Origin: a virus
Lineage: Duplodnaviria; Caudoviricetes
IMG/VR virus record: IMGVR_UViG_2974703250_000001
Coordinates: 1-64,000 of that record
Strand: one strand, 5' to 3'
DNA length: 64,000 nt
Positions 30,205 to 63,876 of the stretch are shown piece by piece. Every line of letters starts with the position of its first letter. Position 1 is the stretch's first letter. The notes under the pieces are model-generated. The model had not been told where the DNA came from. It worked only from the letters and a program-made list of their open reading frames with translations, and searched no databases. Made by a program: the position numbers and the translations under genes.

Positions 30205-30609
30205 GGTGACACTAGGTGGGTTGTTGTCGTCGCCTTAGTCGGGAACGGTACTAGCGACTCTCCTTGAAGAATCTTCTGCGGTTTTGCGATCTTCTGGAAA
30301 TCTTAAGAAATTTCCTCATGGGAACCTCAGGCCCGGAAGTGGCCCCCGACATGTCCGCAGGTACACGCCCTGTACAGCCCTGACCTGCGCCGACAGCGTT
30401 CTTAGTTGACACTTTTGGTGACACCTGACGAGAAAAAGCCTCTGACCTGCATGTTCTTAGCGGCATCAGGGGATTAAAAGTCCGTAGAGGCAGGTGCTAT
30501 CGTGCCAGGTGCGACATGTCAAACACGCAGCTAAGCGGGGTTTAGCACGCCTGTGCAGGCTTATGCAGGCACCGCGTAGTTGACACCTGTTGTTGACACT
30601 AGTTGACAC
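30205..30609. mobile_element. attP region: core 30471-30487 plus arm-type repeats
   Basis: Minus strand CTACGGACTTTTAATCC resembles a tRNA-Lys(TTT) anticodon arm; GTTGACAC/GGTGACAC repeats near 30205, 30405, 30417, 30579, 30592 and 30602 flank it, next to int. Confidence 0.72.
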
Positions 30610-30623
30610 CTGGGAGGGTTCAG

Positions 30624-31931
30624 ATGGCCGAGACCGAGGAAAAAAATAAGAGGCGCAAGAGGGGTGACGGAGGTCTCACTTACGACCCAAAGCGCGGCCT
30701 GTACATCGGCACCGTATGGGATAAGTGGCCGGACGGGAGGCCGCGCCAGCGCCGCGTCTCGTCAAAGAAAGAATCGGTGGCCGTAACGAAGCTGAACACG
30801 CTTCGCGCGGACGTTCTCAGCGGCAAGGCCGCGACGACGAACAAGACCATGACGGTTAGTGAGTGGCTGGACAAGTGGCTGGTGATCAAAAAGGCTGAGG
30901 TCCGGCCCAAGTCCTACGACAGCTACGAACTCGCGGTCCGGCTCTATATCAAGCCGCACATCGGGGACAAGCGGTTGTCCAAGTTGACGGCGGCTGACGT
31001 GCGCGCCATGCAGACGGCGGTACAGAAAGGCACCAAGGGCATTAAGGGGTCTACCCGGAGCGCTCAGAAGGCCCACCAGACCCTCAACATGGCCCTCACG
31101 CAGGCCGTCCACGACGAGCACCTACACCGCAACCCATGCGTAGCCGTGAAGTTCCCCAAGCATGCAAAGAAGCAGCGTGGCGTGTTCGAGACGAGCGCGG
31201 CGGTTCACATTCTGCGGACGGCGGCGAAACGTGACGACGAGGACGACGCTAAGCGGCCTAAGCTCGCGTCCCGGTGGGTGGCCGCGTTTATGACCGGCGC
31301 GCGGCAAGCCGAGTGCATCGGTTTGGAGCTGGACCGTATCGACTTCAAGAACGACGTTATGGATATCTCGTGGCAGTTGCAGCGGCTTTCGTATGACCAC
31401 GGCTGCGGAGAGCCCGACGCTGACGGTAAGTACCCGTGCGGGCGGGTGCGAGTGGGGTACTGCCCGACCCGCAAGTTCAACCCGCCACCCGGATTCGAGT
31501 ACCGGCCCTGTCATCACTCGCTGTTCTGGACCCGGCCTAAGAGCTACGCCGGAGAACGGGTGGTTCCAATGGCACCGCTACTGAAAGAGTCGCTTAAGGT
31601 CCATATCCAGATGGATAAAGACCCGAACCCTTACGGGCTGGTGTGGCATCACCGAGACGGTAGGCCGATAAGCCAAGAGGACGATAACGAACAGTGGAAC
31701 ATGCTGATGGCTGCTGCTGGCGTCGATAAGAAGGCCGGAGAGGCTGTATTGCACGAGGCCCGGAATACGTCAGCGACGATGCTTCTAGAGTCGGGCGTTG
31801 ACGTTAAGGTCATTCAGCAGATATTGGGGCACGCGTCGATCTTGCAGACGCGGGAATACCAGCGGGTGAGTTTGGAGCTGAGCAAGAGCGCCGTTAGTAA
31901 TGCTTTCGACGCTCTGCTCCCGAACCTCTAG
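30624..31931 (+). CDS. int: Tyrosine integrase
   Basis: TGARQAE (R), LHEARNT (HxxR), LGHAS, EY catalytic Tyr; GGGAGG RBS before ATG30624. Confidence 0.93.
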   Translation: MAETEEKNKRRKRGDGGLTYDPKRGLYIGTVWDKWPDGRPRQRRVSSKKESVAVTKLNTLRADVLSGKAATTNKTMTVSEWLDKWLVIKKAEVRPKSYDSYELAVRLYIKPHIGDKRLSKLTAADVRAMQTAVQKGTKGIKGSTRSAQKAHQTLNMALTQAVHDEHLHRNPCVAVKFPKHAKKQRGVFETSAAVHILRTAAKRDDEDDAKRPKLASRWVAAFMTGARQAECIGLELDRIDFKNDVMDISWQLQRLSYDHGCGEPDADGKYPCGRVRVGYCPTRKFNPPPGFEYRPCHHSLFWTRPKSYAGERVVPMAPLLKESLKVHIQMDKDPNPYGLVWHHRDGRPISQEDDNEQWNMLMAAAGVDKKAGEAVLHEARNTSATMLLESGVDVKVIQQILGHASILQTREYQRVSLELSKSAVSNAFDALLPNL

Positions 31932-34275: not shown

Positions 34276-34360
34276 GGACAACGTTCTGGCGGTGCTGTCC
34301 CTGCTGGTCCTCATCGCGTTCATGGCCGTCATCTTGAATGCGTGGTTCACGGGATGGTGA
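34256..34360 (+). CDS. Small membrane protein
   Basis: 34 aa, single TM helix. Confidence 0.45.
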   Translation: MSDQALRDNVLAVLSLLVLIAFMAVILNAWFTGW

Positions 34361-34446
34361 CCTTAGATGCAGCCGATGTACTCGTTTCTTGTTTAACTTC
34401 CGAAACGCCAGCCTCAGCCCTAAGCTGGTTTACAGAGGGGGAGGGG

Positions 34447-34776
34447 ATGAGAAAGTTTCGAGGCGTGATCAACGAAACGCGAAGGGTAGCGATGACTAAC
34501 CCGCTTGGCCGGAATGAAGCTCCGGAATACAGGCGGAACGGAAAGCCTTGCTGCATCTTTGGTCACGTCTTGGAACGGCTCGGAATCCCAGTCGCCAAAT
34601 GGGAGCTTGAGCTTCTTCTCAACAACCACACACTTGCAGACTTGCCCTGGGAAGACTGGGGCTTTGAGAAGCCTAACGAATACCAACTGCTCTGGATCAC
34701 TAAGGTTCAGGCTAACGCAGATAACCGGGATGCGTGGATCATAGCTATTGCTATGGCTGACGCAACCCTGATCTAA
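34447..34776 (+). CDS. Hypothetical protein
   Basis: GAGGGG RBS before ATG34447; PCCIFGHVL..QANAD..W. Confidence 0.55.
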   Translation: MRKFRGVINETRRVAMTNPLGRNEAPEYRRNGKPCCIFGHVLERLGIPVAKWELELLLNNHTLADLPWEDWGFEKPNEYQLLWITKVQANADNRDAWIIAIAMADATLI

Positions 34777-34961
34777 CGCTTAAAAATCTTATAGCTGTCA
34801 CTTACGAAGTAACTCCGTAGTCGGAGGGTCCGTGTTTAGCGTCCGGGCCGCAGAGTGGTTCGCCTGCAAGTAAGCCAGCATTGAATACGTGTGTATTTCC
34901 GCACTACGAACTGGTCCCTGATGGGTTTATGTCCTATCGGCAGCCGGAGACGTGCGGGGTA

Positions 34962-35071
34962 GCGATACGCGGTTGGTACCTGAGGGTGACCGCATGAAAA
35001 CGCTCTGGCGGGGTCCGTGGCCGAATCTACGGGTCAGAGCATCCCCGGTTCGATTCCGGGGTATCGCACCA
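34962..35071 (+). ncRNA. tRNA-like RNA with acceptor stem, T arm and encoded CCA but no anticodon arm
   Basis: GCGATAC/GTATCGC 7-bp acceptor stem, A73, CCA; CCCGG-TTCGATT-CCGGG T arm; two non-canonical internal hairpins. Confidence 0.8.
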
Positions 35072-35218
35072 AGCCGGAGCGGTTGAGACGCACAGCGCTA
35101 ACGGGCATTAGCGCTTATAGGTGCGCGACGTAAGGGTGTGGCGTCCGCTGCCACCTGTTGCGCTCCCGCTCCGGCCTTTCACTTTCCACCTTCACCACAA
35201 CCACGAAAGGGCAGTCAG

Positions 35219-35635
35219 ATGACGGTTATTTACTTGGGTGAACCAACCGGCCCACGACTCCGCGACCTCAGCCGGTCGCAGGAGAAAGCCCTTAACGACT
35301 GGCTCACGATGGCACTGGTTGTGCCACCGACGAGGCGCGAAGAAATCCCCGTCGACTTTACGCGAGCGCTTAGTGCCCTGGCTAAGCGTAGGGGTATCCG
35401 GTTCCACTTCAACAGTGACCGGATGCGGGTACGCGGCGAAGCTGTGCTCGGTAAGAACATGCCCGGCTGCGTTGGCGGCACCAAACGAAAGGTCACGGTT
35501 ACCGATGAAAGGCAAGTGGCTACGAAAGCTCAATCCTCTATCCGGGTCAAAGCCCGGTCCGGAGGTTTCGTCTCCGGCGGTGGAGAAGGTATCGCCCCTT
35601 ACCACGACCGGGACTGGCGCGACGACTACCTATAG
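35219..35635 (+). CDS. Hypothetical protein
   Basis: AAAGGG RBS before ATG35219. Confidence 0.55.
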   Translation: MTVIYLGEPTGPRLRDLSRSQEKALNDWLTMALVVPPTRREEIPVDFTRALSALAKRRGIRFHFNSDRMRVRGEAVLGKNMPGCVGGTKRKVTVTDERQVATKAQSSIRVKARSGGFVSGGGEGIAPYHDRDWRDDYL

Positions 35636-35876
35636 CTATAGGCGGTGTGCGCGCTGCAACGCCCTATTGACGTTCAAGTACAGGAGATGTACGGTATGCA
35701 ACATGGAACCGGAACTGGCCGCGTGGAAGAAGGAACTGCTGTGGCGTGCGACCTGGGATGCGGAGCGGTTTACCCCGCCGGGCGTGCATGGCAGCGCGAC
35801 CTTCACCACTACGCCTCCGAAAAGGGCATCCTTCCCACCTGCGGGCGGGGTGCAGAGCGAAAGGCGCGAGCCGCTA

Positions 35877-36674
35877 ATGCTGAGGCAGCCTGAAAAGTTG
35901 ATGCTGGCCGGTGACTGGCACGGTAACTTGCCGTGGGCATTCAAGGCCATTAACTACGCCAAGTTCAACCGTGCAGACACGATTCTGCACGTTGGCGACT
36001 TCGGCTGGTGGAAGGCTGGTCCAGCCACCTACCAGTTCCTCGAAGAGGTCAACAAAGAGTGCGAGCACCACGGCATCGACTTGCTGTGGGTTGACGGTAA
36101 CCACGAGGACCACGCGTTCTTAGGTTCGTTCAACGTCCCCGGCGCTCAGCCGCTCACTACTAAGTCCTATCCGCGCATTACGCACCTACCGCGCGGGTAC
36201 CGGTGGGTGTGGTGGGGCGATACGTGGATGGCGCTTGGCGGCGCTCATTCGGTCGACCGCTCATTCGCTGTTGAGGGTGAGTCCTGGTGGCCGGGCGAGT
36301 GGCTGGATGACAAGCAGATGGATTACGCGATGCGACCTGGCAAGGTCGACATCATCGTGGCCCATGACGCGCCTACCAACGTCGAGATTCCCGGCATTGA
36401 GCCTGGTAAGGACATTTGGCTTCGTATCGACGGTAAGCCGCGCAAGGTTCCTCAGGTCGACAAGCTTAAGGCCGAGGAACACCGCGCCCGTATCCAGCAA
36501 GTGTGCGATGCGGTTAAGCCGGTCGAGTTCTATCACGGCCACTATCACCGCGACTACAACGCGTTGTGCCGGATTGAGGGCGGCGGCTACATGAACGTCC
36601 GGGGCCTCGATAAGGACGAAACCACGATTGCCAAAAACACGTATTTCATCACGGAAGGGCTAGACGAGGAATGA
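35877..36674 (+). CDS. Calcineurin-like metallophosphoesterase
   Basis: GDWHG, GDFG, DGNHE, AHDAP, GHYH motifs; true start ATG35877 inside the long ORF. Confidence 0.88.
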   Translation: MLRQPEKLMLAGDWHGNLPWAFKAINYAKFNRADTILHVGDFGWWKAGPATYQFLEEVNKECEHHGIDLLWVDGNHEDHAFLGSFNVPGAQPLTTKSYPRITHLPRGYRWVWWGDTWMALGGAHSVDRSFAVEGESWWPGEWLDDKQMDYAMRPGKVDIIVAHDAPTNVEIPGIEPGKDIWLRIDGKPRKVPQVDKLKAEEHRARIQQVCDAVKPVEFYHGHYHRDYNALCRIEGGGYMNVRGLDKDETTIAKNTYFITEGLDEE

Positions 36675-39420: not shown

Positions 39421-40839
39421 ATGGCTACCTTTTTGCAGAGCTTGCAGTCCCAGTTCAACACCACTCGCACGGAGAACGGCGATAAGGCGCACAAGTCGTC
39501 GCTTGATCCGGTGGTGGATTACTTCGGCCTAGCGGGCGCTATGCGTGACCGCGCCGAGGCGTCGGCTGACCTGTTCGAGAAGGCGTTCCGATTCGACCCA
39601 CAGGCGGCGGTCCGGACCCTGTTCTATCTGCGTGACGTGCGCGGGGGCCAGGGCGAGCGTGACGTGTTCCGTGCGGGCCTCAAGCGGCTTCTGGCGAAGT
39701 GGCCGGGCGCTGACTACTCGGTGCTCAAGCATGTGCCGTTCTACGGGCGCTGGGACGACCTGTTCTACGACGGCGCGAACGTCACGCCCGCCGTGGCCCG
39801 GATTCTCCACTATCAGTGGGCCTCCGACGTTGCGGCGTACGAGCGTGGCGATCAGGTGTCGCTCATGGCTAAGTGGCTGCCGTCCGACAAGGCCGCTAAC
39901 AAGGAGCTGGCTATCGCGGTGCGTCAGGCGCTCGGTCTGACTCAGCGTGAGTACCGGCAGACCCTTACGGCTCTTAGGGGCCGGATTGGTCTCGTCGAGC
40001 ACGATATGTCGGAGCGCACTTACGAGCACATCGACTACTCGCGGCTCCCGGCTCAGGCGCACCGTAAGCACGTTAAGGCGTTCCGGCGCAACGACGGTGA
40101 GCGGTACCAGGCGTTCCTTGACGCGGTGCAGCGTGGCGAGGCGAAGGTGAACACGTCGACCCTGTATCCGTACGAACTGTTCGACCTGTGCCGGTCGGAC
40201 CCTTCGGCGGCTGACGCGTTGTGGAAGAACCTGCCGGACTACACGCAGCCGGGCCAGGATGCGCTAGTCCTGCCGGACGTTTCCGGTTCGATGGCGGGGC
40301 GTCCTATCTCGGTGTCGGTGTCGCTGGCGCTGTACTTCGCTGAGCGCAACACGGGTCCGTACAAGGGCTATTTCCTGTCGTTCGACACCACGCCCAAGCT
40401 GGTTCAGGTGCCGGAGTCGGGAGACTTGCAGAGCAAGTTACGGGCGATCAGTAGCCATACCAACAACTGGGGTTCGACCAACTTGCGGGCCGCGTTTACC
40501 GCGATCCTCAGGGCGGGGTTGCAGTCGGGCACCGTCCCGGCCACGCTCTACGTCGTGTCGGACATGCAGTTCGATCAGGCGCTTAACAACGCCGATCTGA
40601 GCGTGTTCGAGTCGGCCAAGCTCTCGTTCCAGCAGGCGGGCCTTGAGCTGCCGCACGTCGTGTTCTGGAACGTGAACGCGCGGCATGATCAGTTGCCCGC
40701 GACGGCTATGGACGGAAACGTGACTCTCGTTTCCGGGCTGGCTGCTACGACGTTTGCGCTGGCTGTGCAGGGTAAGTCCCCGCGTGAGCTGGTGGACGAC
40801 GTAATCAATTCGGAGCGATACGAGAAAATCGTTCTGTAA
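39421..40839 (+). CDS. Ro60/Rsr-like RNA-binding protein (TROVE plus vWA)
   Basis: RTENG, LFYLRDVRGGQGER, YGRWDDL, AKWLPS, DVSGSM MIDAS, VSDMQFD, FWNV. Confidence 0.9.
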   Translation: MATFLQSLQSQFNTTRTENGDKAHKSSLDPVVDYFGLAGAMRDRAEASADLFEKAFRFDPQAAVRTLFYLRDVRGGQGERDVFRAGLKRLLAKWPGADYSVLKHVPFYGRWDDLFYDGANVTPAVARILHYQWASDVAAYERGDQVSLMAKWLPSDKAANKELAIAVRQALGLTQREYRQTLTALRGRIGLVEHDMSERTYEHIDYSRLPAQAHRKHVKAFRRNDGERYQAFLDAVQRGEAKVNTSTLYPYELFDLCRSDPSAADALWKNLPDYTQPGQDALVLPDVSGSMAGRPISVSVSLALYFAERNTGPYKGYFLSFDTTPKLVQVPESGDLQSKLRAISSHTNNWGSTNLRAAFTAILRAGLQSGTVPATLYVVSDMQFDQALNNADLSVFESAKLSFQQAGLELPHVVFWNVNARHDQLPATAMDGNVTLVSGLAATTFALAVQGKSPRELVDDVINSERYEKIVL

Positions 40840-63803: not shown

Positions 63804-63876
63804 GCCACCTTAGCTCAGTTGGTAGAGCAGCCCCTTCGTAACGGGCAGGTCAGCGGTTCGACTCCGCTAGGTGGCT
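63804..63876 (+). tRNA. tRNA-Thr(CGT)
   Basis: Full cloverleaf GCCACCT/AGGTGGC, D arm GCTC/GAGC, loop TT-CGT-AA, T arm AGCGG-TTCGACT-CCGCT; CCA not encoded. Confidence 0.93.

Follow-up and report, generated by a model that had tools for sequence, protein, structure and literature searches.

How does a phage use the shape of a transfer RNA (tRNA) for something other than decoding? The question is raised by an element at positions 34962-35071 of a viral sequence recorded as IMGVR_UViG_2974703250_000001, of which positions 1 to 64,000 were analysed; these 64,000 nucleotides (nt) are called the window below and are part of a 77.6-kb genome. The virus is a Cluster L (L4-like) mycobacteriophage, and its nearest relatives are Chaser (94% identity over the gap in which the element lies) and Bromden, both of subcluster L4. 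A preliminary description, made from the letters alone, had recognised here a tRNA-like RNA, and its coordinates and anatomy (acceptor, A73, encoded CCA, T arm, D-like hairpin, linker, and bulged arm) turned out to be exact. The missing anticodon arm and the unusual internal architecture to which it drew attention are likewise borne out by the fold and by comparisons between phages. As an interpretation it holds insofar as the element is a conserved tRNA-like RNA outside the tRNAs, the transfer-messenger RNAs (tmRNAs), and Rfam; it overlooked the larger structured RNA of ~390 nt, antisense in its 5' part, in which the element is embedded. The element belongs to a new family of phage tRNA mimics within a composite antisense RNA, so far found only in Cluster L mycobacteriophages and one prophage. 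The reading that we favour, plausible though short of probable, is that of a non-decoding tRNA mimic processed by the enzymes of tRNA maturation, which would punctuate and stabilise the composite antisense RNA.

A conserved frame around an exchangeable arm

The minimum free energy structure that RNAfold returns without constraints is the same four-way junction as that set out in Table 1, with -50.3 kcal/mol and a z score of -2.8 against 200 shuffled sequences. The 12-base-pair (bp) acceptor/T-arm stack and the T loop are present as in a tRNA, and the interior between the acceptor strands, ~75 nt, is not conserved. It occurs in 74 phages of Cluster L and in a single Mycolicibacterium sphagni prophage. 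From these, 17 distinct versions were collected, and 14 of them were aligned with MAFFT. In this alignment, pairing is kept in 97.6% of the cells that make up the acceptor, the two tiers of the D-like hairpin, and the T stem, and six of 21 pairs show compensatory changes, as against 31-48% pairing and 0-1 compensatory pairs in a control in which the 3' partners were slid by 1-3 columns. With all 17 versions, in an alignment that was fitted to a covariance model and is therefore biased towards structure, 97.7% of frame positions pair and 12 of the 21 pairs carry compensatory changes (three in the acceptor, six of nine in the D-like hairpin, and three of five in the T arm); slid controls across both alignments give 31-48% pairing and 0-2 compensatory pairs. 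Covariation in related phages, proposed in the preliminary description as a check on its claim, is thus found in more than half of the pairs of the frame.

The covariance model itself was built from the 14 versions, with the L3 phages and the prophage left out, and it recovers the versions that were left out, at 32-36 bits for L3 (Whirlwind and a relative) and 49.7 bits for the M. sphagni prophage; genuine phage tRNAs reach at most 24 bits on the same model. It is in the L3 phages and the prophage that acceptor pairs 4, 6, and 7 covary, and the UGG bulge of the D-like hairpin is kept in L1, L2, L4, and the prophage. Because G-U pairs of the frame (e.g. 16-28 and 17-27) would read C-A on the opposite strand, the fold is assigned to RNA of the plus strand. 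These comparisons confirm that the element is a real conserved structure and not a chance fold.

The family appears to be narrowly distributed. It was not found in 150 other Mycobacteriaceae genomes, and viral and genome contigs held no members outside Cluster L and the M. sphagni prophage; an initial pattern for viral contigs, based on the T arm and acceptor, was too unspecific and returned mostly unrelated contigs. Within the window, covariance model R1 finds no second copy of the element. In the prophage, the acceptor/T stack appears, by sequence reading, to be made of 12 pairs as 6+6, versus 7+5 elsewhere. The prophage sequence (L133:1347-1506, the same as L150) also offers two alternative 5' acceptor strands for one 3' strand, namely a perfect 7-mer ~50 nt further upstream and the homologous strand, which forms 6 bp and is the one chosen by the covariance model; between the two lies an additional hairpin that Whirlwind also has.

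What varies is the part in which a tRNA would decode. Among phages with near-identical flanks, the whole arm at the anticodon position gives way to unrelated hairpins, and the arm types comprise those of the window, Faith1, Archie, L1, two of L3, and the prophage. In Douge and in MkaliMitinis3/Loadrie, the arm is an 80-nt nested piece that contains D-arm-like and T-arm-like hairpins, while in another relative 255 nt of different sequence substitute for window positions 34895-35044, arm included. Within the window type, changes in the arm stem are one-sided and keep the pairing (A-U to G-U), and the loop is variable. A search of the whole phage genome for a complement of the variable arm gave no significant match. 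The nested piece (Douge, L125:478-619; MkaliMitinis3, L130:440-579; the same in Loadrie) has a D arm reading GUAGCUCAGUAGGAGAGC, a short arm with AUAA in its loop, and a T-arm-like hairpin with a UGCAAAU loop, the stem of which covaries between Douge and MkaliMitinis3; its acceptor pairs poorly.

The 3' end is not uniform either. CCA is encoded in six of the 17 versions, and 14 versions have A as discriminator while three have G; the DNA of L2 phages reads ACUG after the acceptor, and L3 variants carry a non-canonical T loop, UGCAAUC. Under relaxed settings, the identity that ARAGORN gives the element changes with the phage (Gln, Phe, Ala, Gly, Ser, Val, or Leu). Since these identities, the CCA, and the discriminator all vary among phages, the element has no decoding identity and no uniform charging identity, and the A/G discriminator together with the CCA encoded in 6/17 versions argues, at the level of sequence, against a single conserved aminoacylation identity. 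One stretch of the frame recurs in a true tRNA of the same phage: the T arm (35044-35060) is identical over 17 nt to that of its tRNA-Cys(GCA) (genome 67046-67062). The identity extends to 20 nt in Fezzik and fails in Faith1, and the shared sequence may stem from gene conversion between T arms.

The checks with ARAGORN and Rfam that the preliminary description had named were run and identified neither a canonical tRNA nor an Rfam family. With default settings, ARAGORN reports only a tRNA-Thr at 63804 in the whole window, without calling the element, and it finds nothing in 16 of the 17 variants. Rfam 15 gives no match to the element at gathering score, and none at E values up to 10 when the local 800 nt are searched. 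The tRNA-Leu(CAA) call that ARAGORN makes for L1 phages relies on another acceptor, a poor one, and is not repeated in a sister L1 sequence. The element does resemble a class II tRNA-Leu, or the tRNA family RF00005 in general, in its 7-bp acceptor on a 5-bp T stem, the UUCGAUU loop, A73, and the CCA of some members, and its GG-containing part could contact the T loop. It differs in lacking positions 8-9 and in having a two-tier D hairpin with a tetraloop, followed by an 8-nt linker. A canonical tRNA (RF00005) was rejected, as there is no anticodon stem with a 7-nt loop, the anticodons are inconsistent, and Rfam finds no match.

A tmRNA, whether in one piece or in two, was rejected as well, in agreement with the preliminary description. 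The likeness to the tRNA-like domain of tmRNA lies in an acceptor and T arm with a CCA end, and in the replacement of the anticodon arm by other RNA. However, the element has G3:C70 in 17/17 variants instead of G3:U70, and it is without resume codon, tag frame, or pseudoknots by ARAGORN, with ~75 nt between the acceptor strands; the tmRNA mode of ARAGORN is empty under both default and relaxed settings.

A composite RNA and its distant complement

A structured RNA of ~390 nt (34794-35178), made of four domains and located in the early rightward operon, contains the element as its domain III (Table 1). Only 4 nt separate domain II from the first G of the acceptor, and domain IV begins directly past the CCA. 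The rest of the gap is conserved at least as strongly as the element. The stem of domain IV also emerged as a self-match when the whole genome was searched with the gap; the domain ends in a GC-rich stem before U-rich sequence and is not picked up by a simple terminator scan.

The same whole-genome search gave one significant match outside the gap. Positions 34869-34894, in domain I and the linker that follows it, are the perfect reverse complement, over 26 nt, of genome positions 65747-65772 (E 7e-9; L149:2248-2273), which lie outside the window and ~31 kb away. In the window phage, this distal site fills the spacer between tRNA-Lys(CUU) and tRNA-Ser(UGA) of a rightward tRNA cluster, and both partners are on rightward transcripts. 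The complementarity is found in 10/10 genomes, i.e. those of the window phage, Bromden, Douge, Archie, CELFI, Faith1, Rumpelstiltskin, Fezzik, Whirlwind, and the M. sphagni prophage. The paired sequence occurs in four versions (L4 with the prophage, L2, L1, and L3), which are told apart by an indel and by at least seven differing positions, and each version is matched by its own distal site over 23-28 nt, with a U-G in Bromden as the sole mismatch. An inverted 28-nt match in the contig of another relative is consistent with the antisense link.

In L1, L2, L3, and the prophage, the distal site runs right up to the GGGGGUGG ribosome-binding site (RBS) and the GUG start codon of a gene for a DUF4417 nuclease (phrog_940). 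Phages of the L4 type have tRNA-Ser(UGA) between the distal site and that gene, joined in the window phage by tRNA-Ala. Rumpelstiltskin keeps the distal site though it has lost most tRNA genes. An annotated tRNA-Ser(UGA) adjoins the site in Archie and Douge; just upstream of it in Faith1 (L144:6360-6455) and Fezzik (L145:6530-6625) is a sequence that resembles tRNA-Ser(UGA), has an odd T loop, and is unannotated.

For domain I and the linker, conserved complementarity with compensatory changes, as expected of a trans-acting antisense small RNA, is observed. Pairing in trans between two early RNAs is the simplest explanation of this link, and concerted evolution of a short inverted repeat at the DNA level is the less likely one. 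The long-range antisense link is new here. Furthermore, in another Mycolicibacterium genome (G022, L153:1490-1700) a relative of domain I occurs by itself; after it come a hairpin, an intrinsic terminator of canonical form, and an excisionase-like gene. Because this relative stands alone, with the terminator and the excisionase-like gene after it, domain I is taken to be a separable small-RNA module. No tRNA-like domain lies 3' of it, and no complementary site was detected in its own genome. A scan of genome contigs with the domain I motif otherwise returned two chance matches and the M. sphagni prophage.

Table 1. Features of the structured RNA and of nearby genes (window coordinates).
Feature	Position	Strand	Description	Evidence
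Domain I	34794..34880	+	Closing helix and three abutting hairpins; two invariant AAGUAA junction strands	RNAalifold, 11 phages: 27 pairs, 6 compensatory
Antisense segment	34869..34894	+	3' strand of domain I closing helix and single-stranded linker	Perfect complement of genome 65747-65772
Domain II	34899..34957 (approx.)	+	Long hairpin with variable tip, closed by CGCAC/GUGCG	RNAalifold, 9 phages: 18 pairs, 6 compensatory
Domain III	34962..35071	+	Whole tRNA-like element	Sequence, fold, covariation
Acceptor, 5' strand	34962..34968	+	Pairs with 35061-35067 (7 Watson-Crick pairs)	First three pairs invariant in 17/17 variants
D-like hairpin	34969..34993	+	5-bp outer stem, UGG bulge, 4-bp inner stem, YGAG tetraloop (UGAG in the window)	
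A-rich linker	34994..35001	+	AUGAAAAC, 8 nt	Only in phages with the window-type arm
Variable arm	35002..35040	+	14-bp bulged hairpin with 6-nt loop, where anticodon and variable arms would be	
T arm	35044..35060	+	5 bp, UUCGAUU loop	
Acceptor, 3' strand and end	35061..35071	+	3' strand 35061-35067, discriminator A 35068, encoded CCA 35069-35071	
Domain IV	35072..35178	+	Long-range stem 35073-35082/35166-35175 around inner hairpins, U-rich stretch after	RNAalifold, 11 phages: 23 pairs, 4 compensatory
Start of 138-aa protein gene	35204..35221	+	RBS (GAAAGGG) and ATG (35219); function not assigned	
Metallophosphoesterase gene	~35670-36671		Two genes 3' of the structured RNA	
Ro-like protein gene	39421-40839			Pfam DUF2828, DUF7788, and weak VWA matches

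Possible roles of the tRNA-like domain

RNase P and the 3'-trimming and CCA-adding enzymes recognise a pre-tRNA by its acceptor/T stack, the T loop and its partner, a short leader, and the discriminator. The features of such a punctuation element, i.e. the acceptor/T minihelix, an elbow, a single-stranded 4-nt leader, and a discriminator with or without CCA, are all present and conserved in domain III. It is because the parts read by these enzymes are conserved, while the part that they ignore varies, that we favour a processing and stability module. Host RNase P would cut at 34961/34962, the 3' end would be trimmed, and CCA would be added where it is not encoded; the UGG bulge could supply the elbow contact with the T loop. 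The cut would define where the antisense RNA that precedes the element (domains I-II) ends within the polycistronic early transcript, and processing would detach the downstream mRNA, which encodes a highly toxic phosphoesterase, and free a stable tRNA-shaped RNA of ~107-110 nt. Domain I, at the 5' side, would be the antisense regulator, pairing over 23-28 nt with the leader of the DUF4417 nuclease gene beside tRNA-Ser(UGA), ~30 kb downstream. That most versions do not encode CCA is no obstacle, since the true tRNA-Cys genes of the phage vary in the same way.

Several points weigh against this reading. Processing itself is inferred. The D-like hairpin abuts the acceptor, with nucleotides 8-9 missing and the 8-nt linker placed before the arm, and the three-dimensional shape may therefore differ from the L of a tRNA; the T loop of L3 is non-canonical. 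A bare processing signal would need neither invariant first three acceptor pairs nor a maintained long arm, and both hint at an extra, sequence-specific partner. Finally, the repeated wholesale swaps of the arm look like diversifying selection, which pure punctuation leaves unexplained. Because acceptor invariance, the long arm, and its replacement are unaccounted for, two rival explanations stay alive, one as a decoy and one as a cis-acting regulator or antidote.

The first of these, put forward in the preliminary description, which we hold to be unlikely and yet the strongest of the rivals, is that the processed, CCA-ended, tRNA-shaped RNA serves as a decoy or sponge for a factor that reads tRNAs at their acceptor end or elbow. 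Candidates are toxins of mycobacteria or prophages that modify acceptor ends, a synthetase, EF-Tu, and RelA-type sensors, with the exchangeable arm tuning capture. Some mycobacterial MenT toxins and phage-borne CapRel-type toxins do act on tRNA 3' ends. The conserved parts of the element, namely the acceptor end with its three invariant pairs, the T arm, and the elbow, are those that such a factor would see, and repeated swapping of the arm among near-identical phages is what an arms race would predict. The phages also invest heavily in tRNA and RNA biology: the window phage has 14 tRNAs and a Ro-like protein, and its relative LeBron encodes a polynucleotide kinase as well as an RNA ligase (PMC13148394). 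However, neither the discriminator (A/G) nor the encoded CCA is conserved, no defence or counter-defence gene is adjacent to the element among the neighbouring proteins scanned, and the element is embedded in a larger RNA with a different demonstrable activity, antisense pairing.

The second, to which we give somewhat less credence than to a decoy, is that the whole structured RNA remains attached as a cis-acting leader or RNA antidote, which controls transcriptional read-through into the following genes or their translation, or directly restrains the toxic metallophosphoesterase in the manner of a type III toxin-antitoxin system. Cluster L phages and the prophage alike keep the order of structured RNA with its terminator-like domain IV, 138-aa protein gene, and phosphoesterase gene, and the homologue of the phosphoesterase in LeBron (gp46) is reported to be too toxic for cloning (PMC13148394). 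The GC-rich stem end and U-rich sequence of domain IV would suit such a role, although the domain misses the simple terminator criteria and early transcription in Crossroads passes through genes 41-48 (PMC6426596). Moreover, nothing ties the phosphoesterase to the tRNA-shaped RNA, and the predicted fold of the 138-aa protein is uninformative.

These possibilities could also be combined. In a modular riboregulator, which we regard as a doubtful extension of the evidence, the tRNA-shaped handle would be cut, CCA-tailed, and stabilised by host enzymes, and the arm would be a cassette exchanged under selection, for example to trap tRNA-end-directed toxins or other tRNA-binding factors or to restrain the phosphoesterase; the handle would be coupled to an antisense domain that times nuclease expression and tRNA-Ser processing. 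If this were true, the RNA would represent a new class of composite tRNA-mimic and antisense RNA.

A decaying gene, i.e. a former class II, Leu-like tRNA that has lost its anticodon arm and drifts in its middle, is very improbable and is largely refuted already by the covariation. It would explain why some L1 records annotate tRNA-Leu here, why A73 and a GCG...CGC acceptor are found, and why the element is an orphan while the other tRNAs of the phage are clustered elsewhere. Yet the four helices of the frame are upheld by compensatory changes across four subclusters and the prophage, and the middle consists of well-folded replacement hairpins that bear no sign of erosion. The tRNA-Leu call in L1 rests on a different acceptor and fails in the sister L1 sequence at default settings, the anticodons called under relaxed settings differ in nearly every phage, and the flanks are equally conserved and structured.

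A tRNA-derived element that acts as DNA (attP core, replication origin, or recombination site) is scarcely credible. The attP of a phage does frequently include the 3' portion of a tRNA gene, and a recombinase could in principle act on the inverted repeat pair of 23-28 bp. The Cluster L attP lies elsewhere, however: its 17-bp core, which matches tRNA-Lys(UUU), is located upstream of int (PMC10865867). The T stem covaries, which is impossible for an attP core that matches a host gene, and the G-U pairs are strand-specific. A search of 151 Mycolicibacterium genomes gave no match to a host tRNA at E 0.01 or better (weak matches of the T-arm region are not tRNAs by ARAGORN). An invertase site was rejected because the repeat is without dyad symmetry and the genomes are collinear.

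Known tRNA-like RNAs and the genomic setting

Known tRNA mimics come from plant viruses, tmRNA, Y RNAs, and mascRNA. Among these, the YrlA-type Y RNAs, tRNA mimics bound by Ro60, share a non-decoding D/T/acceptor module with the element and have been found in mycobacteriophages (PMC4201824); a Ro-like gene is present in the same phage. The topology is opposite, however: the ends of YrlA lie in the Ro-binding helix and its acceptor is closed by a loop, while the acceptor of the element is open and its arm is closed. YrlA or another Y RNA was therefore rejected on topology, on the lack of an Rfam match, and on the location of the Ro-like gene, 4.4 kb downstream; at gathering score, Rfam detects no Y RNA in any part of the window. 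In function, the nearest analogies are taken to be tRNA-like processing signals such as mascRNA and two RNAs of phage T4. Stable small RNAs linked to tRNA genes, with their function unexplained, are described for phage T4 as RNAC and RNAD (PMC3014915) and may be likened to the element by description; they lie inside a tRNA cluster, whereas the element is 30 kb from its own. A retron or other RNA linked to a reverse transcriptase was rejected, as no such family was found among the nine downstream proteins scanned.

Two further systems offer analogies for the proposed processing and pairing. In the mascRNA of MALAT1, and where RNase P cuts bacterial operon mRNAs, a tRNA-shaped module sits within a longer transcript; by analogy, cleavage of this type would set the 3' end of the upstream RNA and free a small CCA-tailed RNA. 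Those modules are eukaryotic or plain tRNAs, whereas the element has a non-tRNA architecture of its own and a swappable arm, and its processing is predicted. The 3' external transcribed spacer (3'ETS) of leuZ in Escherichia coli, a sponge derived from tRNA spacer or trailer, provides a possible parallel for a pre-tRNA spacer complementary to a regulatory RNA. Here, in contrast, the duplex is perfect over 23-28 nt with both partners phage-encoded, and the target abuts the RBS of a nuclease gene in most subclusters instead of lying between tRNAs.

A DNA-phage family of such architecture is absent from Rfam, and no description of one was found in the literature searched. The family is a testable one, in genetically tractable phages of M. 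smegmatis, with a well-defined frame and an arm that can be exchanged; the pairing of its partner domain, over 23-28 nt, with the tRNA cluster and the leader of the nuclease gene is supported by compensatory changes over a distance of ~30 kb. It allows one to ask how phages use tRNA shape beyond decoding, and in what way their early RNAs govern the later genes in mycobacteria. In addition, the genome annotations of ~75 phages are to be corrected: in the records examined, the gap is annotated with nothing, with a hypothetical open reading frame, or, in some L1 phages, with tRNA-Leu.

The coding-free gap of ~445 nt (34777-35218) that houses the element is present in all 74 Cluster L records of the phage collection. 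It lies in a rightward early operon, 3' of int (30603-31931), repressor, cro, xis, and three small genes, and is followed by the gene of the 138-aa protein and then the metallophosphoesterase. A simple scan of 34300-35400 found neither promoter nor terminator. The genes that flank the gap on both sides have no match in Pfam, the neighbouring proteins match only function-unknown families in PHROGs, and their comparison with the Atlas yielded sub-threshold leads only; the AlphaFold model of the 138-aa protein has a predicted local distance difference test (pLDDT) score of 44. Early in infection by the L2 phage Crossroads, at 30 min, transcription runs across genes 41-48 and spans the gap, which lies between genes 45 and 46, and a second early transcript, of genes 59-118, includes the tRNA cluster; an RNA-seq set of this infection exists (GSE121829) (PMC6426596).

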